Shown: in pieces, positions 2,176-63,639 of the stretch | Layout: every line of letters begins with the position of its first letter | Position numbering within the stretch: the stretch's first letter is position 1 | Source of the DNA: Ginglymostoma cirratum | Lineage: Eukaryota | DNA length: 64,000 nt | Assembly (NCBI GenBank): GCA_024137785.1 | Contig: JAHRHZ010000004.1 | Span: 22,588,005-22,652,004 of the forward strand | Reading direction: 5' to 3' | Program-made: the position numbers and the translations under genes | The notes under the pieces: generated by a model | What the model saw: only the letters and a program-made list of their open reading frames with translations | The model's database searches: none | Told to the model about the DNA's origin: nothing

Positions 2176-4300
2176 TTGGATACCCAATGCAATGAGGCAA
2201 ATGAACTGCTTGGAGGGCAGGCACCCAGTGATTGGCAGAGGTGCCAACACCCTAGACAGATGTACAGGTGGATGGATGGATTGGGAGGGAGTCTAGAATT
2301 AAGAAAAAGAACGTCACCCACCACCCCCAATTCCCAAAGTGGTGGCCCGGCCTATTTCGCTGTTTAACTGGTAGAGGGGGCACCCACTTACTGATCAGTT
2401 ACCCATCACGTATCTCAGTCGGGATACTTCCTGAAGCTGGCACTCTCCTGATGGGTGAATGTGCAAATCTGGCTGTTTTTCAAGTATCTGTGATAAACAA
2501 TCAGCCTGTTCTATTTTATGACAGGTCTTCCCTAAATGGAATAGGTCAAGGGTGTTCAGCACAGGAGTGTTGCTATGTTAATTCAGGGTCTGACCTACCA
2601 AAAATCCACACATGCCAAACTGCGCTTGGCTGCTCCTTGAAATTCCCAGTTGTTCAGCAAAGAGTATCTTTTAATTACACAAAAACTCTACCCCGTTCAG
2701 AAAGGGACTGGGCAGTCATCACTTTAATTCCAATCTCAAAACCCACTCTGGCATCACCTCTAAACTATGAGCACCCATGACTGGTGGTTAGCTACATTTT
2801 AACTTCCTCCCATTTGTCAAACGTCCCAAAACCAATGAGCTCAGAGAAAACTAAACTAACTGAAGCAAGAACTTTTAATGTTCATGTCTCAAAGGTTTGG
2901 GAATTGATTTCAACAAACTTGAACCCTTAATCCCGACTCTATTCTTATTGCAAGACAAGCAAACTGAGTGGGTAATCATTCAGTACAAAGTCTACACCAG
3001 GCATCATGTAAACCACTATCTCACTGAGCAGCTACAAATAGTGACTCAAACCTCCTTCCATTTAGTGAGTCTGGTTTTATTGTTCACCGGATTGTTCCTG
3101 TATGTGATAAATTTTTGCCCTGGAGATATTAATGAACTCACAGTGGTTAGAATTTGATGAGAGTATCAAGCTGAAAACTGGAAGGTGTGTTGCCAATACA
3201 ACATAGCGTTTCTCTCCGCGTGCTTTAACCAATCATTTACTTCCTCAAACTCAATTGGTCCTGTGTTTTTGTAACCGATTGGACTCTGCAGTCCCATTCT
3301 GTAACTCCTGAGGGAGACTGGGATATCTTGAATAATCGTTGGGGTAGGAGAAGGGGGTGCATAATTGGGGTGGGTCATGAGGTAATAGTGTTCTGAGGGA
3401 ACAAACTGGGTGGTCTTCACACCAAACCCAGTGGGATTGAAAGTCTCCAGGAGCAGGCTAACTTGTTCCCCTTCCAAGGCCAGGTATGCAGAGGTCAGAG
3501 GTCAATAACTCCATCCTAAACACTATCTTGACTGACTGGTTCACTAGGTATATGGTTAAGACACAATCTGCAACTTTCCTGCCACTGTGAGTCAGTGTTA
3601 CACCAGCCAATACCTTTAACTACAGTATTAGATCCTCGAAATGTCCTGTGATTATGTTTAATCATTCAATCAAAGCTGGAATATTTACATTTGGGTATAA
3701 CAGAAACCTAATGAGATGCGGGCACTGAGGAAAGCCAAGGATGTTAATCTTGTCCTTTGGTGTCCTTTTAGTCCTATCCTTCTCACCCGTAGGTGCTGAC
3801 TTGTCTAAGGGCTCCAACAGTATTCCTGTACTTGATCCCATCTTGTACGGGAGATGAGACAGTGGTTTTCAGACTATTAAAGCATGAAGTGGATTCCAAA
3901 ATCTGTTCCAATCTGGTGATCTATCTGTAAGCACTGTGCTCTCTGTTGGGGAGCATTCATCAGCAAGTGGGAGTTGAATTTTCCTCTTTCTAACCTGAAA
4001 GGGACTGGGCTATGACAGCTAAAGCACATTTTCCAGCCTAGCTGGGATTAGCTGGGCTACAAAGTTAGCCTCAGAACTAGAGCCCTCCTGGTCATTAACG
4101 CTCATGGCCCATATAATCTGCTGGATGCCTAGCCATTGCTTAAGGGAGTGAGGGATGCTGGGTGAGAGGGGTCATTCCCAGTGATTTTATCTCATCCCTT
4201 TTAGGCCCCGGGTTAATGTCAGCCTCTCTTGTTTTTGTACCTCACAGGATGTTAGTTGGGTTATGTCAAGATGCCTCAGGCATCATGAGTACAGGGCAGG

Positions 4301-4531
4301 GATAACAACAGTGTGGAGCTGTTGGAACACAGCAAGGCAGGCAGCATCAGAGGAGCAGGAAAGTCGACATTTCGAGTCGGGACCTTTCTTCATTTCTTCA
4401 GCCATTTCTGAAGAAGGGTCCCAACCCGAAACATCAGCTTTCTTGCTCCTCTAATGCTGCCTGGACTGCTGTGTGCCTCCAGCTCTACACTGTGTTATCT
4501 CAGACTCCAGCATCGGCAGTTCTTACTATCT
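4301..4531. mobile_element. Inverted head-to-head dimer of PLE family A 3' terminus
   Basis: 4301-4392 is the reverse complement of 4408-4500; the right arm extends to the ...cttactatctc end. Hammerhead core CTGAAGA..GAAAC ATC at 4408-4435. Confidence 0.8.
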
Positions 4532-7500
4532 CTGAATGAGTATGGGGCACACTTGATGGACCAGATGGTATTGCTCCTGCACGTCATTTTTGTATGTTCT
4601 CAGAGGACAGCTGAAAAGAACGTTCCTTTTTCAACATACATTCGTGAAACAAAAAGGTTTAAAACGTTTGTTCCTCTCATCTTTATTTATGGGATGACGT
4701 TGACACTGAATGGCTGAGATAACCAACAGTCACTGCTCCTTAAAATAACTCACGTCAAGTGTTTGCAGACGTTTTGATGGGATAAAGTGCTAAAGCGTAC
4801 AAACTCTCCACCTCCTGCTTCCACATTCACAGGAGACAGCCTCAGCTCCTGCATTTCAAGTTGAGACAGACATCAGCTCTTTATTTATCATGAATAATTC
4901 TGCCTGCAGATCTCAGGGGTAGACCGATTTGTCCTCATGGTGGCTGAATTTCATTATGAAAACAGACATTAAATGTTGCAAACTGTGAAAATGCATCTTG
5001 CTTATGAAATTTTTATTTGATAGATTCCCATTCCTTTCCACACTGTGGGACTCCATTAGAAAAAGTCATTCCACAAGTAGTTTAAAATCTACTCATTATC
5101 CTAATACATATGTACACTATTCAGTGCGTCATTAGGGATCTAGGACCTTCATAAATATTCAGGCTAATGAATCTAAAAGATCTATGAATAATTTTGTTTT
5201 TGCCATTCAGTGCTTCATATTATCATGTCATTTACCACTGGGTTTAACACTCATGGTGACAACTGTTTTATATTCAAAGCTCTTCCCCAAAATCCACCCC
5301 ATGCCATATTGACTCTCCTACGGGCAGCCTAGTCCAAGTAACCATACTTGAGGTGAGCTGAGAGAAAGAGCAGGACGGGCTATTCAACTACAGATGGCGT
5401 CGGACCCTGGGGTGTGAGCAGTGACGCTGTACAAGAGCCGAAGTCCATCAGCAGGCTTCATTTGAAGGTACAGGCTCAGCGCAAGGTGCTTAGAATCACG
5501 ATGATTCTCTGTTAGTCTTTCAAAATGTGGAACCAGTCGATCCTGGTGGAGGCTATTTCCACCAGTTTTAGACGTCAACTCAACCCCTCCCCCTCCATAA
5601 AAGAAAACAGTGGGCCTCAATTCCCACCCCTCCCCTCCAAAATCAAAATGTGAATCTCTACCAACGAGTGCCAGGAATGCTGCAGTCTAGAATGTCCTGC
5701 CTTTCCCAGGTTCATTGTCTTGTAACTCCCTGGGTCCACCGCTGTGCTCCCTTGTAAAGGTCAGGTCCACGTTCACTGCTTCCCTTTCCCTCGCCTTGTT
5801 AAAACGTCCTGGAGGCACAGTGAATAATGCGCGATGCCACTGTTCCTCACTTTTACACGCTCTCTTCTAAGGTCACCAAAGTCTGGGGCTCGAACTCCTC
5901 TTTCAACTCCTTTGGGGCTCAGTGAGTACTTCAGCCAAGAGTTCCCTCGCTTTATCAAACAGCCTGTGCAGAAATGCAACACCCGTGGATGAGCTGTTTG
6001 CTCAGGTTACTGCGTGAATGCAGGGAAAAGATTCACTCTCTGACCAGTGAGAACAAATGGCAGGTTGTGTGCTATAAATTCAAGCATTACACTACAAATA
6101 GGACCTACCACATGGCACCCAATATATTCTTAACCAGACTTTCCCCATGCCGGGACCAGCAGTCTGTCCCTCCTACTTTCAGGAGTTTTTGGCAGTTCCT
6201 CAGTTCCTACAAACACCGGCCTTGCCACGCTCCCAGCCACCAGTACCACAGCCCACCAGTGGGTGACACACTGGGAAACTGCCGGCGCATCACAAGATGT
6301 GAACCCGGGTCTGATGGTTCTCAAACACTTGCCCGAGTCTCCCTGCTGCTCCCACAATTCTCAGCCAGAATTGGCTTGACACGGGCTGGTGTCTGACAAT
6401 GCTCAGGGCGCAACCCAGCAAAACGCCTCCTTCAAGGCCCTGTCAACCCAGAGTGTCCAGAGGAGAAGGGTGCCAGGTCTGGCCTTTGCTGTGGTCACCA
6501 GCCCGAGATCGCCCACCTCCACTGGTCTGATTTACCTCGGGGGTCAGGGTCAGGAATTTCTGGCAGTCCCATTCTTCAGCTGGCGGTCTCTGTGAGGGTC
6601 TGCTGGTGTGAGCTAAGCTGTGATGCTCACCATGGTTGAATGAGCGGATTGGCAAAGTCTTTAGGCAAGGGTACAGGAGACGAAGTAGGGGGCCTGAAAA
6701 TGACAGAGCTGTAGACCGCCATTGTGGGACTTGGTGAAATTGTGACTGATTGCTTTATACCTGCTGCTGCATCATCAATGGATTGTTCAGATATTCCTCC
6801 CAGCGTCCAAATACATCCCTAAAACATGCAGGAAGCAGGTTGAAAAAGAAATCAAAAGCCAAATGGAATAATTCACTTTCTGGACCGCTGCCAGAGACAC
6901 AGCGGGCCCGGGGTCTTTGTGTCATTCACATATGAGCAATATTTCAATATACAGCAATGGCCAGATTAACCAGAAACCATTTTAACCTTCCTCCTTCCTT
7001 CCTTCCTTGCCTTTTCCTCTCAGATTTAAGATTCCGTCTTTGTTCTTTGCTCTGACATCCCTTTGAAATATTTATTGCTTTACTTTTCAGCCACTAAAAC
7101 ACGTCCGGCTCAAAACAAAATTCAGATTGCACTTTAAAATGTCATTAGTTTTTTAACCAGAGCGGTGAGAGGCTGCAGGAAGGTTACCACTGATCTTTTA
7201 TGACCCACTGGTATAAATTCCTCAAGTTAAACAGAATTGGCATTTTAATTTCACTTCACAACACAAAGCAAGTCAGAGGCATGGGTCTCGGCCCAGTCAT
7301 TATTGTGCGGACGCATTAAAATAAATCTTTCAAGATGCAAACTAACCAGATGAAAGGGTTTCTAATTCAATCCTACTCAACTAATGATAAACAGATCGTG
7401 CGGGTCATCGAGGCTCACGTTTACTGTGTTAGCTCAGACACGTGGTAACCAAGGAAACACTGGAGAACCCATGTGGATAAGTGGCATTATCTGACCTATG

Positions 7501-13684: not shown

Positions 13685-13745
13685 TGATAACAAGGTGTAG
13701 AGCTGGATGAACACAGCAGGCCAAGCAGCATCATAGAAGCAGGTT
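13685..13745 (-). mobile_element. Short PLE family A terminal fragment lacking hammerhead
   Basis: gataacaaggtgtagagctggatgaacacagcaggccaagcagcatcatag. Confidence 0.7.
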
Positions 13746-18042: not shown

Positions 18043-18557
18043 CCACTCATGGCCAGACAACATCCAACAATGGCTGCTCTTCCTGCTGTAGCGTTCCCAG
18101 AGACCATGCTCCTGACCAATTCAGGAATCTACACTTGGTCCCCTCATCAGCTTCACCTACAGGCTATTCCAAAGGAATACACAGCATGATCATGTGATCA
18201 GCTTCCACATGCAGACTGACCATGCCCCAGTGTTCCTTCTCTGCACATCCAGTCTCAAAATAGCCATAGTTCCCTTCAGCAGAACGTCAGAATGATTAAA
18301 ATCATCTTTGCCCCCCCACGGCCTAAAGCTCCATTAGGAATTCCTGCTGTTTGTGGGACAAAGGGCTGCAAATGGAGCACCTTTTTGTTTTGGAGGAATG
18401 CAGAGTTTAGTAGGTAATGTTGTTTAGGGAGGAAGCAGTTAGAGATGTAGAGAGATGAGGCCGTTATAGAATTTAAACCTGAGAGGTTAAAATTAGCGAC
18501 ATTGCTTTGGCAGCCTCTGTATCCCTGGTCAGTGTGACAGGCTGGTTGGTGAGGGTC

Positions 18558-18690
18558 ATCTGAGGAAGGGTCACCAAAATGTTCACTCTGATTTTTTCTT
18601 CACAGATGCTGCCAGATGTGCTGAGCTTTTCCAGCAACTTCTGTTTTTGTTCCTGACTCGCAGCACCCGCAGTTCGTTCGGTTTTTATTT
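18558..18690 (+). mobile_element. PLE family B 3'-terminal unit
   Basis: ctgaggaagggtcaccaaaatgttcactctg...cacagatgctgccaga...cagttcgttcggttttt; matches 56080-56215. Confidence 0.75.
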
Positions 18691-18874
18691 AGAATGAGCA
18701 GGTGTTTATTGTGGGCGGAGGATGGGGAGCTGGCCAATTCGATCTCCCTCCCCTGCCCCACTTTCAAGACCGAATCAGGCATTAAGATTCCCGCAACACC
18801 GCACAGCCCTGGCCCTTCCCTCAATCTACCTGCCACAGCAATGTTGAGAAGAAAAACCAATTTCAAGCAGTTGG

Positions 18875-18970
18875 GATAACAAGGTGTAGAGCTGGATGAA
18901 CACAGCAGGCCAAGCAGCATCAGAGGAGCAGGAAGGCTGACGTTCCGGGTCTAGACCCTTCTTCAGAAAA
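18875..18970 (-). mobile_element. PLE family A 3'-terminal unit
   Basis: gataacaaggtgtagagctggatgaacacagcagg...gacgttccgggtctagacccttcttcag; hammerhead core with a GAAA>GGAA change. Confidence 0.8.
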
Positions 18971-20086
18971 TTCCTTCAAGGAGTTGGGCTTGTTGCTGGC
19001 ATTTATTAGCCAGCAACGGTGATGTTGAGCGATCCTCTTGAACCTCTGCAGTGCCATCAAGGAGGGAGTGGCAGAGTTTTGGTGAGGAAATGGCAATATG
19101 CTCCCAAAACAGGATGGGTTTCCACAGACAGGCTCAGCTATCCCCTCTGCTCCCTTGGCCGGCTCCCTATCCTCCACCCACAATAAACACCAGCTCATTC
19201 TAAATGGTCCTAAACCCCAGCAACCAGCCTGTCACACTGACCAGGGATACAGAGGCTGCCAAAGCAATGTCGCTAATTTTAATCTCTCAGGTTTAAATTC
19301 TATTACAGCCTCATCTCTCTACATCTCTAACCGCTTCCTTCCTAAACAACACTACCTACTAGACTCTGCATTCCTCCAAAGCAAAAAGGTGCTCCATTTG
19401 CAGCCCTTTGTCCCACAAACAGCAGGGATTCCTTCAGCTGCCCAAAATCTGATATTTCGGGAGTGCCGCGTTTCTCCACCTGCTGATCCGAAAAGCCTCA
19501 CCTTTTCTATCAGATTTTAGATTTCTTTAACTTTTTTAATTTCTTTAACTTGGCTTGCACATGTTCTCGGTTATACCTCTGTGCCTGTACATGTCAGCAT
19601 TGGGTTGCCTCAGAGGAACAGTGAAAGAATTGCTTTAAGGTGGCTGTAAAGCAGTTTCTTACATTCGGTGGCTACAATAGGTGCTACATAAATGCTGGTT
19701 TTCTTTGTGAAGCATACATACTGCTCCTGTATTGAAGACAACATTAAATACACTCTGTTGTTGCTGATACACAGAAAATACACAACCATGCAAGGCTGAA
19801 TTGCTTTGGCCTCTATGGTGATGCCCACCACAAACAAATAGCTCGATGATAACTACTGTAAGACCCAACAAAAATGTTTGGATTGCAGCGCGAGCTGGCT
19901 TCCAGATAAGAGCAAAGATGCAGGGCCAAAAAAAAAAATTAGCACTTTAAGTTGCTTTAAAAAGAAACAGCACTTGTCCCTGAGTAGGTTGAAAGTGGGT
20001 TATCTACAACTCAAATAAACAGGGGCAAACCTGGCTCCACTCCATTTGCTGGACTCGAACCGATAGGAACATTGGGCTGTACAGGG

Positions 20087-20946: not shown

Positions 20947-22490
20947 TAGAATCACAGAGTCACAGAGATGCGCAGAACGGAAACAGACTCTTTGGTCCAA
21001 CTCCTCTGTGCCGACCAGGTATTCTAAATTAATCTAGTCCCATTTGCCAGCATTTGGCCCATATCCCTTTAAAACCTTCTTATTCATACACTAGATGCCT
21101 TTTAAATGGGATAGTAAGAACTGCAGATGCCAGAGTCAGACAACACAGTGTGGAGCTGGAGGAACACAGCAGGCCAGCCAGCATCAGAGGAACAGGAAAG
21201 TTGACGTTTCGGGTCGGGACCTTTCTTCAGAAATGGGGGAGGGGGAAGGGAGCTCAGGTAGCGGGGAGTGGTGGGGATTGGTCAGTGAGGTGGGAGGAGT
21301 GGACAGGTGGGAGAGATGATGGACAGTCTGAGTCAGATCAAGGAGGCGGGGATGAGAGGGAGTGATGGTCATCGGATGAGGCCGGGGGTGGGGAGATTTT
21401 GAAACTGGTAAAGTCCACATTGAGACCATTGGGTTGTAGGCTCCCAAAGCGGAATATGAGGTGCTGCTCCTCTAGTTTGCAGATGGTGTCATTGTGACAC
21501 TGGAGGAGGCCCAGGATGGACATGTCACCCAGGGAGTGGGAAGGGGAGTTAAAGTGGTTTGCGACTGGAAGGTGTTGTGGTTTGTCATGAACAGAGTGCA
21601 GGTGCTCTACAAAGTGGTCTCACCAATGTGGAGGAGGCCACATAGGGAGCAGCGGATGCAATAGGCCACATTGACAGATGTGCAAGTGAACCTCTGTCTG
21701 ATGTAGGTGGTTTGTTTGGTGCCTCGAATGGAGGTGAGGTGTAGGGGCAAATGTAGCACTTCCTGCGGTTGCAGGGAAAGGTGCCGGGGGGTGGTGGGGC
21801 TAGTGGGGAGTGTGCAGTGGACGAGGGAGTCGCGGAGAGAGCAGTCCCTACAAAAGGCAGGTAGGGGGTGGGGAGGGAAATATCTCTTTGGTAGTGGGGT
21901 CAGATTGTAGGTGGCGGCAGTGGCAGTGAATGATACGTTGGATATGGAGGTTAGTGGGGTGATATGTGAGGACAAAGGGGATTCTGTCTTTGTTTTTGTT
22001 GGGGGGAGAGGATGTCAGGGCAGAGGCATTTTAAATATTGTATTTCTACCAGCACCACCACTTCCTCTGGCAGCTCATTTCCATACATGCACCACCCTCT
22101 GATGAAAATGTTGTCCCTTGGTCCCTTTTAAATCTTTCCCCTCACACCTTAAACCTATGCCCTCTAGTTTTGGGCTCTCCTCACCGTACCTATGCCCCTC
22201 ATGATTTTATAAACCTCTAGAAGGGTGCCCCTCAGCCTCCAACACTCCAGGGAAAATAGACCCAGCCTATTCAGCCTCTCCCTGTAGCTCAAACCCTCCA
22301 ACCCTGGCAGCATCCTGAACGCTTTCAGGTTTCAGGCCATCCTTTCCAAGGCAAGGAGACCAGGATTGAGTGCAGTATTCCAAAAGTGGCCTAACCAATG
22401 TCCTGCACAGCTGCAACATGACCTCCCACCTCCTACACTCAGTGCACTGACCAGTCAAGGCAAACGTGCCAAATGCCTTTTCCTCTTCCT
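20947..22490 (-). mobile_element. CR1-clade LINE 3' fragment split by PLE (pieces 20947-21107 and 22022-22490)
   Basis: Colinear HER1-like sequence on both sides of the PLE; LVRPLLEYCTQSWSP. Confidence 0.8.
21108..22021 (-). mobile_element. 5'-truncated Penelope-like retroelement (family A, Neptune-like) with GIY-YIG remnant and 3' hammerhead motif
   Basis: Minus ORFs give FTCTSVNVAYCIRCSLCGLLHIGET (GIY-YIG) and KLEEQHLIFRFGSLQPNGLNVDF. The 3' UTR has CTGAAGA-AAGGTCCCGACCC-GAAAC-GTC (21203-21230). Imperfect 15-bp TSD agatgccttttaaat (21093-21107) / agaggcattttaaat (22022-22036). Splits a CR1 3' end. Confidence 0.85.
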
Positions 22491-24262: not shown

Positions 24263-25037
24263 CTTCTATCAGGGCTGCAATGTAAGAAGAGCCTGTATAC
24301 ACCCATCACAGTGAAGTAAGGTACAGTTAAGGTTAGCCAGCAGGAATTCTACCAACATGAACACAACTCTATTCTTTGCTTGTTTTTACAGATTTGCACA
24401 TACCAGTCGCTGATAAAATGCAGCAGTCCCTTTTACATTATGAGCTTGGAGTGGTTATAACTGCAGAACACACAGTCTTGCTCCATTGTTGAGACAATGC
24501 AATCCTCCTGCAAGTTGCTATGGATACCACACATTCGGAAGTCGAAGAGGTAAATGCTGCTGTGTTTTGAATATTTCCAAAGTAATCATTTACTCCATAC
24601 GTCCTTCAGATTGGGAGCAGGTTACAAGGGCTTATTTTCAGTTTCTCACTGTGCCCTTGGCCTCAAGTGTTCTTCTGCAGAACTAAACCAAGGGGCTGGT
24701 GAATGGAGACAAAGTGAGGTTGTCTTCTTAAGCCTGTTTGATTCTGTGCTGGCAATACAGAAATCTTGGACAAGGAGGTGAAATAACTCAGCCTGAGCTC
24801 CTGGCTACTATCCATTGCCTCCAGCTAATAACGACAAGTGGTGAGGAGAGCGGGCTACAATTAGCTTCGGATTTAATGGCTCTCCCCACGTTAGAATAAT
24901 CCAAATAATGTCCCCAGAAGGGGCAACGTGCAAACAAAACCTGTCTTCGGCCAGCATATGGTGTAGTAGAGCAGAAATGAAACAGCAGATAGGAGAGGTA
25001 GCAAGGAAGTGAGAAAGGAAATTAAACACTGAATCAT

Positions 25038-25166
25038 TTCTGATGAAGGGTTTAGGCCCGAAACGTCAAGTTTTCCTGCTCCTATGATGCTGCTTGACCT
25101 GCTGTGTTCATCCAGCCCCATGCTTGTTATCTCGGATTCTCCAGCATCTGCAGTACCTTTTATCTC
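25038..25166 (+). mobile_element. Solo ~130-nt PLE family A unit with intact minimal hammerhead core and 15-bp TSD
   Basis: CTGATGA-AGGGTTTAGGCCC-GAAAC-GTC at 25040-25067; perfect TSD taaacactgaatcat at 25023-25037 and 25167-25181. Confidence 0.85.
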
Positions 25167-25274
25167 TAAACACTGAATCATCCCTGATCAGCTAACAGCT
25201 GTTTGAGAAGAGTCTATAATCCACACCATTCACTCGAGTTAAACTAACCTCAGTAGGTGAAAAGTGCATAGAAG

Positions 25275-33266: not shown

Positions 33267-33610
33267 ATATACTGTTACATCCTCTTCTGAAGTAATCTGC
33301 TCCTTACGGGGACCTCAATCCAACTAGCAGCTTGTGTAGCAACTGGACAGTATGCACATTGTCCTTCACTCTCCAAGAAGGGTAAACGGCATTCTGGCCT
33401 CGCTCCATCAGCTAATGCTGCACTGACTCTTCACAGGGTTAAACGAATCAGAGGGTATGGGGAGGTAGCAGCAACAGAGTTGGATGATCAGCCATGACCA
33501 TATAGAATCACAGAGAAGGGCCAATGGGCCTAATGCATTCCTAATTTCTTTACTTTTCTACGGCTGGGAAGAAAACCTGTCGCACATATAAAGTGAAGCT
33601 ATTAACTCAC

Positions 33611-33802
33611 CCTGTAGGGCCTCTTTGGCTCGGGCCAGCTCCGTCTCCTTCTGAGCAAGCTGCACTTTCAGCTCAGTCACCGACAGGATTTCGGCCGATT
33701 TCCCTACATTCGAATCCTCCAGCTCCTTGGTCAGCATTTCCTTCATCTGTCGCAGCCACTGCACCTCCTCCTGGAGCTGGGAGACCTCCTCACGGAGAAG
33801 CA
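33611..33802 (-). CDS. KAZN: Kazrin coding exon (equivalent to human KAZN exon 2, coiled-coil)
   Basis: Translates (V)LLREEVSQLQEEVQWLRQMKEMLTKELEDSNVGKSAEILSVTELKVQLAQKETELARAKEALQ, closely matching recalled human kazrin LLREEVSRLQEEVHLLRQMKEMLAKDLEES...RVQLAQKEQELARAKEALQ. Pyrimidine-rich acceptor ctctttggtctgttgacAG| and donor CAG G|GTGAGT; 192 bp, phase 1/1. Confidence 0.95.
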
Positions 33803-35344
33803 CTGTCAACAGACCAAAGAGACAGCTCAGTACCAGACAAGAGACAGCTTGGCAAAAACACTGACTACCCATTCCCAGTCGAATGGGGAGGGGAGAGGGT
33901 GGGTGCAGGGCCCCACGGGAGAGATTGGAAAAGGAAGGCAAGGGCCTGAGGAAAGCTGAACAAGGGTCTCAACCTGAAAACAAAAAATACACCTGTTCTC
34001 AAAAATGGCTTGACATAAACTTCCCACCTCCGCCACTATCGACCCATACGTTAAAATAGCCTAGTAGCTACCGTTAGTACAGTTAGGAAAGAGGCCACTC
34101 AGCCTACTGAATCTTTCCTGGCCCTTTCAAAGAGTGAACCAGTGTCCCTCCGCCACCACCAACCCTGTTCCATCCCCACTTCACTGTAACTTCTCCTCCT
34201 CCATGTTTCCACCAGATTTTCGTTTTGAACCCTACTGCTCAATCTGTACCATGCAGGAGACTGGGCAGTGCTGCCCTGCATTTGGGAACGGAGAGAAAAG
34301 TTTTAAAATCCTCTGTGCACAAGACCAGTGGGGGGAAACGCAGAAAACTTACCTAAAGACCCGGGTCCCTGCTGATGTCACCAATTACAGACATACAATA
34401 CGCACAAAGTTACAACAAGGTTCCTTCATGTAACAGTCCAGACCATCCACATTGGCATCAGAACCAAACCAGGTCTTGGCTCGCACGTCAAAGAGATGGC
34501 CACATGAATAAATTTTAAAAGTTTTGCTCTCTATTCCCAAGTGGCATCGGAACCAAACCAGACCCAATTTCTCCCCCATTGGTTCTCGACTCCAGTGTTG
34601 TGCAGGCTGACCCCCTCCTTACCACTCACCCAATACTCTGCTCTTTGCACCCTGACTCGCCCAAGCCTTGTTAACCAATAATCCTGGTTCTCTATCCAGC
34701 AACATGCCCATTTTAAAAACAATCAACGTCGAGAACAAATTGTACCAGCTTCTCACCCCTTCCCCATCCCTACAACCTTCTCCTGCCCCATCGCCCTCCA
34801 AAACCCACATGCTCCTCTAGAAAGTTCCGAGTCTGGTAACATCTGTTGTTGCCATTGATGCCAAAAACCTGTTTTCCTCTGCCCTCTTGAATGCATCCAA
34901 CAGCAGCTCAGATATGAACCTTCATGGACTATTCGTAATGACTGCTGCAGCTGCAGTCCACAGAACGCCAATTACTGCATGTGAAACAACGTGAAACTTC
35001 CTGAGAGGTTTGAACGACATGACAAGATGCTCCAACAGTGAGAGTAGTGGTATACCAAACTTTGCAGTGTTAAAAATAATTCAGGAAATTTAAAAGAAAA
35101 GGACAGCGTCAGTTGAGAGGGACAGAAGAAAAACCACGACCCAGTTCCATTTTGTCTTAATAGCTGCTGCATCATCAGTAGATCGATAGGAGGTTGCTGA
35201 TGGAGCGAACTGGACTGTCACTGGTTGATATCACCACCTAGCAAACGCTTTTCCTGCGGGAGTCACTGGATAAAGCTGAGGAAAAGGTTTATGAAATCCT
35301 GTGGCTTCATCTTCACACCAACTGGGAGAAGCAAAAACTTCAAA

Positions 35345-37101: not shown

Positions 37102-37727
37102 GAGATAATAGGAACTGCAGACGCTGGAGAATCCGAGATAACAAGGTGTGGAGCTGGATGATCACAGCAGGCCAAGCAACATCATAGGAGCAGGAAAGCT
37201 TGACGTTTCGGGCCTAGACCCTTCTTCAGAAATGGGCNNNNNNNNNNNNNNNNNNNNNNNNNNNNNNNNNNNNNNNNNNNNNNNNNNNNNNNNNNNNNNN
37301 NNNNNNNNNNNNNNNNNNNNNNNNNNNNNNNNNNNNNNNNNNNNNNNNNNNNNNNNNNNNNNNNNNNNNNNNNNNNNNNNNNNNNNNNNNNNNNNNNNNN
37401 NNNNNNNNNNNNNNNNNNNNNNNNNNNNNNNNNNNNNNNNNNNNNNNNNNNNNNNNNNNNNNNNNNNNNNNNNNNNNNNNNNNNNNNNNNNNNNNNNNNN
37501 NNNNNNNNNNNNNNNNNNNNNNNNNNNNNNNNNNNNNNNNNNNNNNNNNNNNNNNNNNNNNNNNNNNNNNNNNNNNNNNNNNNNNNNNNNNNNNNNNNNN
37601 NNNNNNNNNNNNNNNNNNNNNNNNNNNNNNNNNNNNNGAAGGGTCTAGGCCCGAAACGTCAAGCTTTCCTGCTCCTATGATGCTGCTTGGCCTGCTGTGT
37701 TCATCCAGCTCCACATCTTGCTATCTC
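37102..37727. mobile_element. Inverted pair of PLE family A termini flanking a 400-N gap
   Basis: 37102-37237 (-) and 37638-37727 (+) are near-identical inverted arms; intact core CTGAAGA-AGGGTCTAGGCCC-GAAAC-GTC at 37202-37229 (-). Confidence 0.8.
37238..37637. other. Assembly gap (400 N)
   Basis: N run. Confidence 1.
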
Positions 37728-46265: not shown

Positions 46266-49219
46266 ATGTATTTCTCGTAATCACAATTTCTTGGGGAGAA
46301 GCAGCAAGGAAGGATTGGGCATAGCAGTCCATGCTGTGCGGCTCACTATCATAGTCGAGGCTAGACTCCCGTCTGTCACAGGCTGTAAATGACAACAAAT
46401 ATCCTGACTGCCTGGTGCAGAGATTCATCCATTTGTATGTGATAGAATTACTCAGCAAACACTCCTCATCCCAATTAGCCTTTCCCCACAAACCAGCCCT
46501 TTATTCTTTTATGGGAAGTGGGCATTGCTGACAAGGCCAGCATCTGTTGACCATCTCCATTTTCCCTTGAACAGTGTAGCTCTCTGGACCTATTAAGTGC
46601 TCAGTAATGAGTCAACCACATTGCTGTGGGTCTGGAGTTACATATAGGCCATGCTGACTAAGGATGGAAAATTCACTTTCTTTAAAAAAAAAATCAATGA
46701 TATTTGTCTTTAACACAGTTTCTTGCATGAGCTGTCAATTACAGATTTTAAATTAATTTAAAATTCCACCAGTGTCCACAGTGCACTGGGCTAGGCTTTC
46801 AGATTACTAGGCAAGCAGCGTTAATGTGATACCATTATCTCCCCTTGGGAAACCGAGAGCATGTCTCAACAACGTTCTTCCCTCATTGGTACTTAAATCT
46901 AGAAAATCAAAACTAGCTGATGTCCACACTGACAGAGCCACAGGATTCAAGGTGACTGATAATGTTGCGCACAGCCAAAGCCCATTTTTCCAGGAGAGCA
47001 GGAAGTTAATTCTAACTGTCCATTTGAGGGTAGGAAAATCCGAGCTTCATGGTGCTGCCGTTGTTACCATGCCTCTTAGTCAAAGTCACAGTGAACTCGA
47101 AATGTTAACTCTGTTTCTCTCTCCACAGTTGCTGCCAAACCTGCTGAGCTTCTCCAGCATTCTCTTAGTGAGCTACGCTGTGGAGAGACTGACTTCCTCC
47201 TGGACATCATGTTATAAATCGCCTGTAAATGCAAAGACAGATCCCACTGTGTTCTCTGGAGGATCCGCTATGCAGACACAATCCCAACTTAACATGGAAC
47301 CCAGATTTGTGCTGATGCTGTCCCAGAATTAGAGTTGGAGTAGGGTGAGTATTGTCTCAGCTCTTTCAGGCTGAGCTCTGGAGCAAAGGTAACAACATGG
47401 GAGACTGCAGAGCGAATGTGGCACAGGTTTTGACCTTCATAAACCTTGCTTGACAAGATCTGCTGCTGCTGCTAACAGCAAAACCTTTAGGACAGAGCTT
47501 CTCAAACCCATTCACCTACAGACCATTTTGCTGGCGTGAATGATCCCTATAGACCACCTACCAGTGCCACAGCACCCTTTACTGCCTGCCACAGCAAGAC
47601 GTCTCAACAGAATTAATGGGAAACTAATGGAAAATATAAATATTTCACTGCTTTTTCACTTCCAAATATAACAAATTTGTGCATTCCTTTCATTAAAGAT
47701 CCTGAATAAATTAATTCATGCCAGAGGCAGAAGTAGAGACATTTTCATTTTATAAACATTAGCACAAAAGAACACTTTTAGTTGAAACATTCTAATGTCA
47801 TTAAATCACCATAACCTTCAGCTGAGAAACTAATAGTTATCATGCATGTGTGTTAAACTCAACAGGAACATAAATCTTCCTTATGAGACTACATTGCTGT
47901 TGATTGTACTCATGAACACTTGTGTTCCCTTGTCTGGGAGCTGGTTTGTTTGCAGGACACCCATGAAGTGCTGAGGCTGAAAGCTCTGGTCTGTTCTCTC
48001 ATATAGCCTCAGCCATGTCATTACGCACCTGCATTTTAAACCAACCCATTGGACGCCCTTTATGGATCACCAGCGATCTGCAGACCACACTAATAGAACA
48101 ATATGGGACTGATCGTTTATCTGTGGACATGACGTAGGGGTCCACTATGACTACATGAGCACACTGTGAAGCTGGAACCTTTTTGGCTAAAACATCATTC
48201 TGTCCAGCACATTTCTCCAACTGAGTCATTCAGAATCAACAGAACCATTTAAAAAGGAATAGTGTGTACCCAAGTCTAATGAAAAAGCTTGCAACAATCT
48301 CACTTTGCTGATAAAATAAGCTACATGCGCCAGGGTTTAGGTTATGAATTTGCACTGATGGAAATTAGAATTAACTTTATTGTCACATGTATTCAAATGA
48401 AAAGTATATACTTCACTGCTTATGACACCATCTTAGGTACAGCTTCTTCAGTTACAATTCTTGGGAAAATGGAGAAGGAAAAAGTCCAGAATTGTAGATT
48501 TTAGGGATGACTTATAAAATGGAGGAAAAACAAATCAGTATAACAATCTTCTAATCCAGACCATGCAGGCATTTAGCCTCCAGTCCACACCAAGTCTTGA
48601 CTCCAGACCATCACTGGACAGCAGGAATCATGCTGGGAAAATAGACTTTGATTCCTGTTTCTCCCTTTCTTGGATGTGGTGTGGAATATACCATGGGACT
48701 AGACGCCTGATACGTAACTCCATCATATGAAACACCTCATTGGATAGGCAAATCCAGAACATCTACTTATAATGTTGGCTTCTGTCAATGATCAGGAGTG
48801 ATTTACTGGGCATTATTATAAATTGTCAGTAAGAAATGACGTGACACATTCCTCTATATTTTCAACACAGAACAAACTACTTCCCAGTTGCTCTTGACCC
48901 TGTACTCTTACACAACAGCTTCACAACAGGATGAGTGCTTCAGCATAATAACCAAACACGCACAAATCACACAGTGTCTAATCAGACATTCAGCAAACAG
49001 TGCCAGAGTCCAGACTACATTTAGTAATGGTGCCATCATTTCAGCTCACCAACAATTGTAACTTTCTGTAGCTTGGAACTGGTTTAACCTAAAATTGACG
49101 AGTCTGTATTGGATATTTTTTAATCAACCTGCTCAATGTTATCATTACACACCTCTGGATCAGGTGGGACCTCCACCTGGGCCTCCGTGGCCAAAGGTAA
49201 GGACATTATACCAAGGACC

Positions 49220-49430
49220 AAAAACAGAAATTGCTGTAAAAAGCTCAGCAGGTCTGGCAGCATCTGTGGAGAGAAATCAGAGTTCATGTTTCGGGATCAG
49301 TGACCCTTCTTCAGTTCTGAAGATAACTCTGCTTTCTCTTCACACATGCTGCCAGATCTGGTGACTTTTCTTTCGCCAATTCCTGATTTTGTCTCCGATT
49401 TCCAGCATCCGCAGTTCTTGCGGTTGTTTT
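49220..49430. mobile_element. Inverted dimer of PLE family B terminus
   Basis: 49220-49315 (-) carries CTGAAGA-AGGGTCACTGATCCC-GAAAC; the (+) arm ...cacacatgctgccaga...cagttcttgcggtt follows. Confidence 0.75.
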
Positions 49431-51694: not shown

Positions 51695-53460
51695 AAGCAA
51701 TGACTGGTCATGATCTGGAATGCTGAGATTGTAGCAGAGGCACATTCAGTTGGGGCATTCAAAAGAGAAATCTGTTCTGAAAGAGTCATAGAGCTATACA
51801 GCATGGAAACAGACCCTTCGGTCCAACTTGTCCATGCTGACCCCCAGATATCCTTAATTAAGCTAGTCCCATTTGCCTGCCTTTGGCCCATATCCCACTA
51901 AATCCTTCCTATACATACACCCATCCAGATTCCTTTTAAATGTAGTTGTACTGGACTCCACCACTTCCTCTGCCAGCTCATTCCAGACACGCACCGCCCA
52001 CTGCATGAAAAAGTTGCCCCTTCGGTTCCTTTTAAATCTTCCCCCTCTCACCTTAAACCTATGACCTCTAGTTTTGGACTCTCCCCTACGCTGGGGAAAA
52101 GACCTGGGTTATTCATGTCGAATTTGAAACGTTAACTCTGTTTCTCTCTTCACAGATCCAGCCAGACCTGCCGAGTTTCTTCAGCAATGTTCTGTTTTTA
52201 CTTCAAAAGACAATTCTATAATTATTTTTGAATAGTTGAATAATTATAGCACAGAAGAGGGCATTCAGCCCAGTGTGACCATGCTGGTCCTCAATCCATC
52301 AAAAGGCCTTCTAGCGTTTTTTTTTGTATCCCTGCGCATCTTTGCATATAATAACCAAATTTTCTGTTGATCCTGCCTCCAGGATACAGTATTTTCCAGA
52401 TCCTTAAAAACAAAGTTGTCATATTCCCAGCAGATCTTGGGGCTGCTCTCTCATTAGAGCGAGACAGCTGGTGGTGATTTTTAATTTGAAGGACAACATG
52501 CCTCAGGCGAGGGAGAGTTTGAGAAGGAGAGTCCTTCATTGTAGTCTCAGCCCCTGTGGGAATTCGACCCACAATCCTGCCTTGCAAACCAGCTGTCTAG
52601 CCAACTGAGCTAGCCAGTTCTGAAGAAGAGATTCAAAATGTTAACTCTATTTTCTCTCCACAGATGCTGCCAGACCTGCTGAGTTTCTCTAGAAATTTAT
52701 GCTCGGGTTGAGCTAGATCCTCACCACTCGCTGCGTGAAAAACATAGTTCCTTCCACCACCATTGCTTCTTTTTGCTAATTATATTAAACCTGCTTCTCA
52801 ATCCTCCAGCCAATGGGAACAGCTTCTCCCTCTCTGCTCTGTCTATGCTCCTCATGAGTTTGACACCACCCCCCCCATCAAATCTGCCCTCAACCTTCCA
52901 GGAAAACATTTGATTCCTTCAATCTCCCTACGTAACTGAAGTTTCTCATCTCTAGAACCATTCTTGTAAATCTTTTCTGCAACCTTTTCCAATGCCTTAC
53001 TGTCCTTCCTGAAGCCTGCTGGGCAGCATTGGACCCAATGGTTTGGTTGAGACTCAAGACAGAAGACAAGATTGCAGGGCCACAGGAAGCAAGTAGGCAA
53101 GTGGGACTAGGGACTAGCAGAGCATACGACCGGCCAAACAGCTTCCATGTTAACCTGGACATACGAACATTCCAATTAGGAGCAGGAGTAGGCCTCTCGC
53201 CCCCTCGGGCCTGCTTGGCCATTCGATAAAATCAAAATGGATTTGGTTACTCCACATTCCTATCTACCCCTGATAACCTTTCAACCCTGTGCTTATCAAG
53301 AATTTATCTCCTTCTGCCTGAAATTATACATAGACTTTTCTATCATGGTATTTTAAGGGAAACAGTTCTAAAGATTTGCAAAGAAAAGCAAATTCTCCTT
53401 ATCTGTTCAAAATGGACGACCTCTTATTTTTAAACAATCACCTCCCTGGTTCTGGACACC
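51695..53460. mobile_element. Cluster of CR1 fragments (mainly 51782-52115 -, 52720-53030 -, 53160-53460 -)
   Basis: GNFFMQWAVRVWNELAEEVVE, LQKRFTRMV and CR1 tails. Confidence 0.7.
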
Positions 53461-55192: not shown

Positions 55193-56215
55193 GGAACAGA
55201 AACAGAAGCTGCTGGAAAAGCTTAGCAGGTCTGGCAGCATCTGTGAAGGAAAATCAGAGTTAATGTTTTGGGTCTGGTGACCCTTCTTCTGAACTGATGA
55301 TAGCTAGGAGGGAAAATGAGTTGTTGTTTTTCCAGCTTGTGCTGAAAGACTGCAGCAAGCCTGAGACAGAGATGTTGGCCAACGAACAGGCTGGCATGTT
55401 AAAGGGGCAGGCAACTGGAAGCTCAAACACACCACCCTGTTCCCTGGCCAACATCTCTGTCTCTGCATCGCTGCAGTGTTCCAGCGAGACTCAGCGTAAG
55501 CTGGAAAAACAACACCTCATTTTCCCCTTGGGGGGCCCTGCAGGCCTCTGGACTCAATATTGAGTTCAATAATTTTAGGGCCTAAACTCTCCCAAGTCCC
55601 AGCCCCCTACCCCACACACCAGGCCCTGTTATCACATAGCCTGCCATTACACACTACCTATTGTTAGTCACTAACAGTCCCCATTAATAGCTATTCACCC
55701 TCCTACCTGAGATAACATGATGTAGAGCTGGATGAACACAGCAGGCCAAGCAGCATTAGAGGGGCAGGAAAGCTGACGTTTCAGAAATTCTGAAGAAGGG
55801 TGTAGGCCCGAAACGTCAGCTTTTCTGCTCCTCTGATGCTGCCTGGCCTGCTGTGTTCATCCAGCTCTACACCTTGTTATCTCAGATTCTCCAGCATCTG
55901 CAGTTCCGACTATCTCTGAAACAATTTACACCCTCCTACCTAGATCGTTATCCACTCCTTTGTCTGTACAACTGTTTTCTCTCTCTTTGGGCACTATCCC
56001 CACCTATCGTTCATTCTTTACCCTCTCCCCCCACCCTAGCTTCTGCATATAAACTGACAATTTCGTAGCTACCATCAGTTCTGAGGAAGGGTCACCGGAT
56101 GCAAAACATTAACTTTGATTCTTTTTCTTCACAGATGCTGCCAGACCTGCTGAGCTTTTCTGGCAAGTTCTGCCTTTGTTCCTGATTTACAGCATCTGCA
56201 GTTCTTTCGGATTTT
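55193..56215 (+). mobile_element. Penelope-like element (family B) 3' fragment with inverted 5' arm and nested family A insertion
   Basis: Plus strand encodes QCSSETQRKLEKQHLIF..., similar to the family A C-terminus. 55310-55391 is inverted relative to 55436-55525. A terminal hammerhead-like motif lies at ~56080-56113 and its inverted copy at ~55257-55292. Confidence 0.8.
55709..55917. mobile_element. Inverted dimer of PLE family A terminus nested in family B element
   Basis: Arms 55709-55783 (-) and 55788-55917 (+); intact core at 55790-55817; caccctcctacct is repeated at 55696-55708 and 55929-55941. Confidence 0.8.
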
Positions 56216-56821
56216 ATTGTGAATAAATGGGTTATTTTTGGAGCTAGTAGGTTGGAACAAGGAAGGTGCCACGAGGATCAGAGCTTGCCCATCAGCTATT
56301 TTCAGTGTCCATGAGTGACTCACATGAAGGGACTAAGTGGAATGTTTCAAAGGTTGGTGACTGTTCAAACTTAGGTGGGAAAATAACCTTGAGGGAGACT
56401 GCAAAGAATGGGCCAGGTCAAGTGAATTGGCAAAATGTGGTAAAATTAACATATTATGGACAAATGTGAAGTTACCCCACTGTAATAGGTAAAACAGAAA
56501 AGCAGAATACTTTCTCAATGTGAGGGATTGGGAAATGCTGGTATTCAGAGGAATCCAGTGTCTTTAAACATGAATTGTAGAAATTTAACACCAATAGTTG
56601 GGAACGCAAATGGTCTGGTAGTCTTTATCACAATGAGATTACAGCATAAGAAGAAAGAAGTTTTATTGCAGTTGTACAGTGTTTTGGTAAGAGCATGTCT
56701 AGAATACTGTCGACAGCATTGACCACCTTGGGTAGAGAAGGGTAAACGAACTTTGGAAGCAACGTGTAAAAGATTCACCAGACTGATTCTGCAGCTGAGA
56801 GCACTGTTCTATGAGGAAAGA

Positions 56822-57875: not shown

Positions 57876-58114
57876 GGTGCAGGGATTTTGTGTCGCTAAG
57901 GTCAAGGATCAGTTGTGATCTTAGTGAATGGTAGAGAAGATTTGAACGGCTCACATCTGCTTGTCTTATAGACTTCATCTTCTCAGGCAGGCTGCTTTGT
58001 GAGACGGGCGTAAGGACATAACGTCTATGATGTAAAGTGTGGTCTTCTGGGATGGAACTGAAGCACCTTCTTAGGGCAGTGTGAAAAGATGAGATTCCGT
58101 TGGCTTATTGGGAT

Positions 58115-58510
58115 AGTGTAGAGGGAGCTTTACTGTGTATCAAGCCTCGTGCTGTCCCTGTCCTGGGAGAGTTTGATGGGGGACAGTGTAAAGAGAGCTT
58201 TACTCTGAATCTGACCCCATGCTGTCCCTGTCCTGGGAGAGTTTGATGGGGGACAGTGTAAAGAGAGCTTTACTCTGTATCTGACCCCATGCTGTCCCTG
58301 TCCTGGGAGTGTTTGATGGGGAACAGTGTAGTGAGAGCTTTACTCTGTGTCTGACCCCTTGCTGTACCTGTCCTGCAAGCTTTTGATGGGAACAGTGTAG
58401 AGAAACCTTTACTTTCAGTTTAAAAGAAAGAGAAAGTAAGACTCTGTATCTAACCTCATGCTGCACTTGGTACGGACAGTTTGATGACACAGTGGAAGGA
58501 ATGCTTTCCT
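58115..58510 (+). repeat. 70-bp minisatellite, about 5.5 copies
   Basis: Unit gtgtaaagagagctttactctgtatctgaccccatgctgtccctgtcctgggagagtttgatgggggaca starts at 58116, 58186, 58256 and 58326, then degenerates. Confidence 0.95.
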
Positions 58511-60783: not shown

Positions 60784-60912
60784 AGATAGTAGGAACTGCC
60801 GATGCTGGAGTCTGAAATAACAAGGTGTGGAGCTGGAGGAACACAGCAGGCCAAGCAGCATCAGAGGAGCAGGAAAGCTGATGTTTCAAGTCTGGGCCCT
60901 TCTTCAGAAATG
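60784..60912 (-). mobile_element. Solo PLE family A unit
   Basis: Full ~130-nt terminus from agatagtaggaactg to cttcttcagaaatg; core CTGAAGA..GAAAC ATC on the minus strand at 60880-60907. Confidence 0.8.
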
Positions 60913-61803: not shown

Positions 61804-61884
61804 AGAAATAAAAGGTACTGCAGATGTTGGATTGATGCTGCTTGACCTGCTGTGTTCATCCAGCCCCATGCTTGTTATCCCAGA
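61804..61884. mobile_element. Internally deleted inverted PLE family A fragment
   Basis: ataaaaggtactgcagatgttgga (- terminus) joined to tgatgctgcttgacctgctgtgttcatccagccccatgcttgttatc (+). Confidence 0.65.
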
Positions 61885-62497: not shown

Positions 62498-62685
62498 GAC
62501 ACACGCATGCAGACACAGACAGTCACTCTCGCACACACACACACAGACATACACATGAACGCACACACATGCATGCACGCGCACACATGCACTCACATGC
62601 GCGCACACACACACGCATGCACACACACATATGCACACATACACAAGCACACCCACACACATGCATGCACACGCACAGACACATA
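62498..62685 (+). repeat. Degenerate (CA)n/(CATG,CACG) microsatellite
   Basis: ~190 bp of nearly unbroken alternating purine-pyrimidine sequence. Confidence 0.95.
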
Positions 62686-63510: not shown

Positions 63511-63639
63511 AGATAGCAAGAACTGCAGATCCTGGAGTTAGAGACAACACACTGTGGAGCTGGAGGAACACAGCAGGCCAGGCAGCGCCAGAGGAGCAGG
63601 AAAGTTAACGTTTTGGGTTGGGACCCTTCATCAGAAAAT
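63511..63639 (-). mobile_element. Solo PLE family A unit with 13-bp TSD
   Basis: TSD gatttaaaatcag at 63498-63510 and 63640-63652; core CTGATGA-AGGGTCCCAACCC-AAAAC-GTT (GAAA>AAAA). Confidence 0.85.

Follow-up and report, generated by a model that had tools for sequence, protein, structure and literature searches.

The locus poses the question of why short hammerhead-bearing units, many of them starting just before the ribozyme core, recur in the window (the whole 64,000-nt stretch of Ginglymostoma cirratum DNA that was analysed), and whether they constitute a mobile element of their own. The first-pass annotation had proposed a fixed-length mini-element of ~130 nt, possibly a non-autonomous and retrozyme-like derivative of Penelope-like elements (PLEs), and had traced the common 5' end either to self-propagation or to a structural stop for the PLE reverse transcriptase (RT).

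The solo tailed unit at 25036-25166 (+), assigned to family A, starts at the A of a putative initiator site; this A, four bases before the hammerhead core, is numbered +1 throughout. The unit is flanked by a perfect 15-bp target-site duplication (TSD), of which the left copy occupies 25023-25037 (+) and the right copy 25167-25181 (+); the final 3 nt of the left copy are microhomology overlapping the 5' edge of the element. A minimal type I hammerhead motif, known here from sequence and fitting the min-HHR description in the available text of PMC4209133, spans 25036-25071 (+). It comprises the 5' strand of helix I (25036-39), the core (25040-46), helix II (25048-51 with 25056-59), GAAA (25060-63), the palindromic ACGT (25063-66), a predicted cut between 25067 and 25068, and the 3' strand of helix I (25068-71). 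A 33-nt tail (25134-25166, +) lies between two 3' termini, presumably two RT start sites, each at a TATCTC motif.

The motif described in the first-pass annotation, CTGAnGA followed by helix II and GAAAC-GTC, was recovered in the units as CTGAnGA-A, a 4-bp helix II and GAAA-CG-TC, with an unpaired base before helix II and an ACGU palindrome. Core, helix II and palindrome are all intact in only three of the seven full-length tailed A copies (25036, 37233 and 55787). Helix I, which had been called weak at about 2 bp, does have 2 bp in most A copies, but it has 4 bp in 25036, 3 bp in 37233 and 4 bp in family B. Helix II is 90.6% paired and the three proposed helices together are 86% paired, with covariation in neither case above that of shuffled alignments (for the three helices, 214-383 of 500 shuffles were equally high). 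The Rfam search gave no match at gathering score over the whole 64-kb window and no hammerhead family over 24950-25250, even at E up to 10, so that the identity of the motif rests on the core sequence and the Penelope context. By these features (core CUGAnGA and GAAA, helix II, palindromic helix III and helix I), the units are assigned a minimal type I hammerhead whose activity is predicted. It shares with the minimal type I hammerheads of metazoan PLEs, as far as the available text of PMC4209133 describes them, the conserved core, the unpaired nucleotide before helix II, the G10.1-C11.1 pair, the palindromic 15.2-16.2 positions, a short helix I and the occurrence mostly as single genomic copies; the schistosome hammerheads of the same source differ in a helix II of 7-8 bp, compared with 4 bp here.

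Five whole units were folded, and their energies did not stand out (z from -1.34 to +1.04). Minimal hammerheads of this type usually self-cleave as dimers; the dimer hammerhead is not scorable as a nested fold, and the minimum-energy dimer instead pairs through helix II. A long-range helix of 7-9 bp, 25084-25090 with 25142-25148, encloses an inner hairpin and has a matching region in family B; kept in both families, although lacking covariation, it could be an RT-binding structure. A CpG-decay comparison gave 6/44 CpG cells against 92/1035 other cells. A weak Rfam match to RMST_8, a conserved lncRNA region, at 25051-25185 (-) (16 bits, E 0.97, gathering score 80) is most likely due to chance.

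The parent of the units lies in the same window. As the first-pass annotation had stated, the unit forms the 3' end of a GIY-YIG copy: a 5'-truncated and frameshifted Penelope at 21109-22021 (-), which runs from a C-x4-CxxC linker through a GIY-YIG endonuclease and a C-rich 3' UTR into the unit (21234-21109) and has its own 15-bp TSD with 2 mismatches. The linker is translated as PCNRRKCYIC, and its Cys columns are invariant or in the majority in the homolog alignment. Such a Zn-finger-like linker, C-x2..5-CxxC, between RT and endonuclease marks the Neptune type according to the available text of PMC8557442. A total of 95 longer homologs were found. The piece 21395-21619 matches shark proteins at 71-87% identity, and among named homologs of the endonuclease fragment those from whale shark and zebra shark come closest (71-76% identity). 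A whale-shark homolog (P0009), which aligns over 22039-21344, scores 23.2 bits for GIY-YIG, above the cut-off of 22.6, and 22.7 bits for RVT_1, below the cut-off; in a zebra-shark protein the frame continues across the C-rich 3' UTR and enters this hammerhead region. On its own, the window's endonuclease fragment, which includes no RT core, had no hit in Pfam, and the PDB yielded no sequence match. No relatives were found when the Penelope protein alignment was compared with viral contigs, and a 24-nt unit pattern had 0 matches in metagenome and GTDB contigs. The parent is classed as an EN+ Penelope-like element, and as Neptune type on the strength of its linker motif rather than of an RT tree with named Neptune or Nematis references.

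The hammerhead-bearing pLTR, which stands at the 3' end of the window copy, stands before the ORF in the relatives L083 and L005, the shark evidence consisting of truncated copies. In L083 the unit sequence continues into a 5' UTR and the ORF, and in L005 the motif precedes the ORF. The module would thus be an mRNA leader as well as the 3' end of the element. These data support the earlier claim that the units are Penelope-derived and were inserted by PLE proteins.

Several other repeats share the window. At 59113-60211 a second, unrelated Penelope family is represented by an RT thumb and GIY-YIG domain on the minus strand, together with a ~330-nt inverted 5' copy that is 84% identical. A SINE-like family, which we take to be shark HE1-like, occurs at 12134, 14269, 25283, 31023 and 54817. 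Many CR1/L2-type 3' ends are present, one of which hosts the long Penelope copy, and a 70-nt tandem repeat and a long (CA)-rich tract are found at 58110-58389 and 62499-62684. An open frame at 33558-33968 (-), with a coiled-coil-like stretch and no Pfam hit above cut-off, is probably a host exon.

An nhmmer search with a profile of three solo units yielded 25 hits in the window, comprising 14 family A arms, 10 family B arms and one match (3555-3607, E=0.75) that was dropped. TSDs were scored against 295 random pairs, for which the 99th percentile was 7 and the maximum 9. They accompany 8/10 family A insertions (13-16 bp), the exceptions being 13686 and 60784, and 3/8 family B insertions (8-10 bp), a 7-nt match at 52122 being at the null level. 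Besides the unit at 25036-25166, the two other solo tailed units named in the first-pass annotation were confirmed, as were further copies at 4404(+), 18970(-) and 55787(+). Both solos begin at +1: the one at 60784..60911 (-) is without a TSD and its helix II has decayed, and the one at 63511..63638 (-) has lost core G12 and is 89% identical to the long copy. Its perfect 13-bp TSD and the 15-bp TSD described above are the two perfect duplications that had been claimed. The copy at 18970, formerly taken for a mere arm, is itself a solo tail-less unit (18875..18971, -) that begins at +1 and has a 14-bp TSD with 1 mismatch.

The remaining family A insertions are mostly head-to-head pairs. The pair at 4301..4532 joins a tail-less arm (-, 5' end +6) to a tailed arm (+, 5' end -2) within a 14-bp TSD with 2 mismatches, whose score of 8 is near the top of the null. 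The pair at 37102..37727 has a 16-bp TSD (1 mismatch) and spans a 400-N gap by which both 5' ends are censored. At 55709..55916, nested in the family B long copy, a tail-less arm (-) with its 5' end at +25, or at +1 if helix II was deleted, faces a tailed arm (+, 5' end +2) within a 13-bp TSD. A short inverted pair without hammerhead at 61805..61884 combines a tail only (-) with the segment +49..+97 (+), and its TSD measures 15 bp by eye and 12 bp inside the script's window. A tail-less fragment at 13686..13743 (-) begins at +39 and has no TSD.

The long insertion of family B (55196..56216, 10-bp TSD) consists of an inverted tail-less arm with an internal deletion and a direct copy; the long copy spans about 55420-56216. 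Its direct copy holds the C-terminus of the endonuclease, TATAAA at 56048-56053 (-29), the initiator-like TCAGTT (+1 = 56077), the hammerhead motif and the tail. In the inverted arm (55310-55420, -), endonuclease-coding sequence is joined directly to the -14 region by a deletion of ~400 nt between short matching T/C words, which removes the C-rich UTR and the TATA box. A solo tail-less unit of family B at 52615..52702 (+) begins at about -1 and has an 8-bp TSD, and a head-to-head pair at 49214..49430 is joined at the +1 region, its arms beginning at +5 and -1. A solo tailed unit at 18559..18687 (+) begins at about +4, and at its insertion 16 target nt were replaced by 10 other nt. It lies inside one arm of a long MITE-like palindrome (18336-19433; 219-nt arms 95% complementary, plus inner arms), which carries one A and one B unit and whose intact arm represents the empty site of the family B insertion. 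Three arms in all (55784, 49321 and 41750) seem to be without the helix II hairpin, as if RT had skipped it.

The proposal of a fixed length of ~130 nt with one common terminus is contradicted by the 3' ends. Eight of the 14 family A arms end at the tail terminus, about +128-130, and six at a second terminus, about +96-100; both termini fall at a TATCTC motif. Each of the four inverted A pairs combines one tailed with one tail-less arm, and all four have a TSD. Furthermore, three tailed copies (55915, 61805 and 4531) run on for 4-13 nt into common downstream element sequence (range over the tailed ends 0-13 nt), so that the 3' end would be an internal start rather than an RNA end, on a template that went past the tail. 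Tails as such are already known in Penelope, where 30-40 bp are found at one end of inverted pLTR copies in the available text of PMC8557442 and PMC3846280, and in the lizard element PAc the tail is described as the stretch between two internal RT start sites (PMC11167929).

The 5' ends are a different matter. Among the arms that reach the motif, 7/8 of family A and 4/6 of family B (11/14 together) stop within -3..+6. With a constant and conservative hazard estimated inside the unit and all at-risk arms included, this clustering has a P of 9e-13; restricted to non-inverted insertions, 6/7 fall within -3..+6 (binomial P 2.7e-7, conservative hazard), and the latter P is still <1e-4 after simple multiplication for ~100 possible windows. 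The ends were set by hand, the 10-nt window -3..+6 was picked after looking, two arms at the N gap were censored, and the ambiguous copies 55784 and 41750 were counted outside the window. Automatic local alignment placed two B ends at -10, via chance matches to the TSD and to the palindromic junction. The three arms that pass the motif extend 120-787 nt further, eight of the 22 uncensored arms end at dispersed positions within the unit, and no 5' end among the 22 falls between -4 and about -120. The junctions show 1-3 nt microhomology, and an extra G of the kind that a cap would leave is not consistently present. At six junctions the filler resembles the 5' part of the unit itself, the longest matches being 4-7 nt, a weak signal with a null of 2.9% for at least 7 nt. 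The pattern of 5' ends is real and statistically strong; the elements that show it belong to a known class.

That random 5' truncation cannot account for the common 5' end, as the first-pass annotation had argued, is borne out by P values from 2.7e-7 to 9e-13. Ordinary truncation, with the clustering due to chance or detection bias, accords with the scattered stops of 8/22 arms and with the description of most minimal hammerheads as single, probably truncated PLE copies in the available text of PMC4209133. Against a P of 2.7e-7 on the non-inverted insertions, which stays below 1e-4 over ~100 windows, it is scarcely credible. A literature search, with Repbase and subscription journals outside its reach, returned no paper whose listing or available passages describe PLE 5' ends peaking at the pLTR start site, and the term 'strong-stop' was absent from the four papers checked for it.

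The sequence around the common edge resembles a transcription start. In both families +1, exactly 4 nt ahead of the core, falls in a match to YYANWYY, the initiator consensus; with a frequency of 1.1% per nt, this motif is weak alone. Family B has TATAAA at -29, for which the chance in a 7-nt window is 0.2-0.7%, and a long-form variant of family A in the public run X23 has TATTTA at about -32 (103 reads, amplicon-like library); the long A copy in the window itself lacks a TATA at this distance (-30). Relatives were drawn from 88 related loci of invertebrate-type contigs, which gave 19 hammerhead hits in 17 loci. TATAWA occurs 31-43 nt upstream of the core in 7/19 of these hits (~4/12 families) as against 4/152 control windows, with the range picked after looking, the control windows partly in coding DNA and 12/19 hits without a box. 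Short arms in the invertebrate relatives begin at -3, -16, -38 and -46, not at one point. An inverted arm in a coral-type Neptune (L088, 601-650) begins 3 nt upstream of the core, behind reiterated near-copies of the first 13 nt of that core. The eight Penelope loci L081-L088 lie on contigs of one GTDB bacterial-MAG record and probably represent animal host contamination.

PLE start sites are described as lying in the pLTR, and a TATA box with an initiator is described for the rotifer pLTR in the available text of PMC3846280. The D. virilis Penelope is reported to have an internal TATA-less promoter and to start about 120 nt before the motif, a distance made up of 46 nt and a 75-nt intron. Because +1 is also the start of helix I, promoter and ribozyme edge are inseparable by sequence. 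A 3' splice site at the edge of the hammerhead, on the D. virilis pattern, was also weighed, and family B does have a YAG and a branch-like motif there; the idea was rejected because the solos have no common upstream exon and the first AG of family A lies inside the core.

Public sequencing runs were searched with the stretch 21085-22045 at 80% likeness. They contain at most 0.42 of its words, and with no run reaching half, they represent partial matches or relatives. In three runs the unit centre is 5-14 times deeper than the best body bin, with 26,567 against 3,539 in the polyA run. Depths at 21222, 21235 and 21274 are 6,658, 3,088 and 389 in the polyA run, 165,080, 81,856 and 15,478 in run X2, and 2.37, 1.75 and 0.43 million in run X3. 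Thus 46-74% of the depth at 21222 still covers 21235, and the C-rich UTR, in which subfamilies differ, confounds the drop past the unit. Where the hammerhead lies, depth exceeds that of the best body bin by no more than 1.1-1.9-fold, a figure itself confounded by an indel that breaks alignments at 21199-21200 (6,731 reads). At 21233, 71 contigs of run X2 depart from the element into dissimilar flanks (agreement 0.35); none does so among the rows listed for X22 or X3. These depths are consistent with a step at the unit edge, but not decisive.

No RNA start peak at +1 was seen in two raw RNA runs, nor any other position at which many RNA molecules start or stop; one is a standard polyA library in which passively transcribed copies predominate, the second is amplicon-like, and the test is therefore a weak one. 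In the same two kinds of library, equally weak for this purpose, no RNA ends were found at the predicted cut. The RNA joints listed include no unit-length go-back joint, the strands are balanced in run X22, and there is no sign of an abundant small unit RNA in libraries unsuited to find one.

The reading that we favour, at slightly better than even chances, is that each unit is a short copy of a Neptune-type Penelope's end module (the hammerhead-bearing pLTR), made when RT starts within the leader and runs off the 5' end of an uncleaved RNA. The units are probably by-products rather than an independent ribozyme-driven element. The module ends the RT-endonuclease copies here and precedes the ORF in relatives. 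A Pol II promoter, with a TATA-like box near -30 and an initiator at +1, would begin the RNA 4 nt before the core. The Penelope protein would then nick the target DNA and begin cDNA at either of two internal sites, ~97 or ~129 nt downstream, giving tail-less or tailed ends; for the lizard PAc, nicking and internal cDNA start have been demonstrated in vitro (PMC11167929, available text). On reaching the RNA 5' end, the cDNA would join the other nick by 1-3 nt of microhomology, leaving a TSD of 8-16 bp, and priming from both target strands would yield head-to-head pairs. The hammerhead would stay uncut in productive templates, and long copies would arise from a start at the 3' repeat of the full transcript. 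Solos, which lack the upstream box, are probably dead ends. A start site in the leader together with internal RT initiation would be expected to give run-off cDNAs of fixed length, which is how the solos look. Twin priming from separate RNA regions was considered for the pairs and rejected, since the arms of most pairs overlap in sequence, 61805-61884 being the exception.

A rather unlikely alternative is that, on an ordinary long transcript, RT starts at the 3' repeat and then aborts, or is captured by a target end, at a barrier on the 5' edge of the unit; candidates are the C-rich tract (G-rich cDNA), a protein-bound or dimerised hammerhead, the last AT-rich microhomology, and endonuclease cutting at ATT. 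Such a barrier would suit the C-run directly upstream of +1 in family A, the microhomology at the junctions, the ATT preference of the PAc endonuclease (PMC11167929, available text), the inverted L088 arm that begins at -3 behind reiterated core-like sequence, and the lack of an RNA start peak in the two libraries, and the skipping of helix II in about three copies means that structure does perturb RT. Family B, however, has the same edge (4/6) without a C-run or ATT at +1, and a barrier leaves the TATA-like box 30 nt upstream unaccounted for. The structural stop proposed in the first-pass annotation survives in weakened form, as a stall at the folded motif would be expected 3' of the ribozyme, at +25..+35, while the peak lies beyond the whole motif.

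Self-propagation in the manner of a SINE, with an internal Pol II promoter (initiator and downstream elements), a read-through flank and Neptune proteins acting in trans, is less likely still. The unit would hold all the cis needs of internal initiation, for which the D. virilis promoter offers a precedent, and short non-autonomous PLEs are described from Chlamydomonas and Heliconius. The copy number is high (24 arms in 64 kb), as is the depth of the unit centre over the body in the three runs. The bearing of subfamily structure is mixed. In a tree of 10/14 A arms over 93 columns, with a single long copy and modest supports, the solo 63638 is sister to that long copy (clade support 88, sister pair 56), and 25036, 78% identical to it, is placed in another subfamily; changes private to 25036 and 61833 unite these two (96% over 53 nt), and the window contains no long member of their subfamily. 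Solos thus fall in at least two clades, one of them with the long copy, a pattern that the first-pass annotation had itself listed as evidence against its proposal, as far as a single long copy can tell. The run-on of three copies points to templates continuing into the element and not into unrelated flanks, and again no RNA start peak was seen. A Pol III B box, searched by consensus, is absent from 8 units, in which a single A-box match with a mismatch lies at +50; the control SINE also gave no B-box match, and the scan is thus insensitive.

The retrozyme reading, in which units would be monomers released by the hammerhead and spread via circular RNA, is very unlikely, although dispersed, pLTR-related monomers including one chondrichthyan family are described from vertebrate genomes (10.64898/2026.07.22.740005, available text). 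The predicted cut lies 32 nt inside the unit, and because a type I hammerhead cuts 3' of its core, a released RNA would lack the core with which the units begin. The cut product would begin at +33 (A) or +35 (B), where none of the 22 uncensored arms begins, the nearest being at +39 and about +30-33; this agrees with uncleaved RNA as the main template of PAc (PMC11167929, available text). None of the 24 arms in the 64-kb window forms a head-to-tail tandem, the motif is of the minimal PLE type rather than the canonical retrozyme type, and the RNA data show neither ends at the cut nor, among the joints listed, a unit-length go-back joint. One X2 contig (depth 80.6) joins 21231 back to 21110 with 21 letters between, that is, two whole units head to tail, and is possibly a tandem, retrozyme-like locus elsewhere. 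Shorter head-to-tail joints (21189 to 21142) in run X3 are without the hammerhead. With no arm at the cut product, no tandem in the window, solos spread over several clades and family B ending at the same edge, the self-propagating, retrozyme-like element of the first-pass annotation is not upheld.

Earlier publications already describe lone hammerheads as truncated PLEs, and likewise solo pLTRs, tails and short non-autonomous Penelopes. Closest to the units are Neptune-clade EN+ PLEs (PMC8557442, PMC3846280), which in the available text share the RT with C-terminal GIY-YIG, the C-x4-CxxC linker, the hammerhead in a terminal repeat, the tail at one end of inverted pairs, TSDs of 8-16 bp and the TATA box and initiator in the pLTR; truncation is described there as variable, whereas here two families show a sharp 5'-end peak. 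PAc, or Poseidon_Ac, of Anolis shares two internal RT starts ~30 nt apart downstream of the hammerhead, extension of both strands and uncleaved RNA as template, but belongs to another clade and its ORF begins inside its hammerhead (PMC11167929); the available text does not deal with 5' ends in the genome or with run-off inserts. Animal non-LTR retrozymes (PMC7229834; 10.64898/2026.07.22.740005) are likewise non-coding, hammerhead-bearing, pLTR-related and dispersed as monomers with long TSDs; they are defined, in the text available, by tandem units, unit-length cleavage and circular RNAs, whereas the units here are solo or head-to-head with ends off the cut site.

Minus-strand strong-stop DNA of retroviruses is a cDNA of fixed length, running from an internal start to the RNA 5' end, which is tRNA-primed and is transferred rather than integrated. 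The shark cDNA, by contrast, would be target-primed and integrated, and the likeness is an analogy only. As a tentative and somewhat doubtful extension, Penelope may routinely make a leader cDNA of this strong-stop-like kind, target-primed internally and run off at the capped start on the hammerhead edge; direct integration would leave thousands of lone animal hammerheads, transfer to the 3' repeat would produce pLTRs and partial tandems, and some solos may be self-propagating Pol II mini-elements.

The pattern bears on how PLEs transpose and on what their hammerheads do. Were the 5' edge merely a stall site, the pattern would be a modest detail of annotation. If the RNA starts there, the many minimal hammerheads that stand alone in the genomes of fishes, amphibians and sharks would be fossil run-off cDNAs that record the start site of each family together with its RT start sites, and productive templates would be uncleaved, extending the in vitro result for PAc to another clade in vivo. 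The finding also cautions against counting lone hammerhead monomers as retrozymes.
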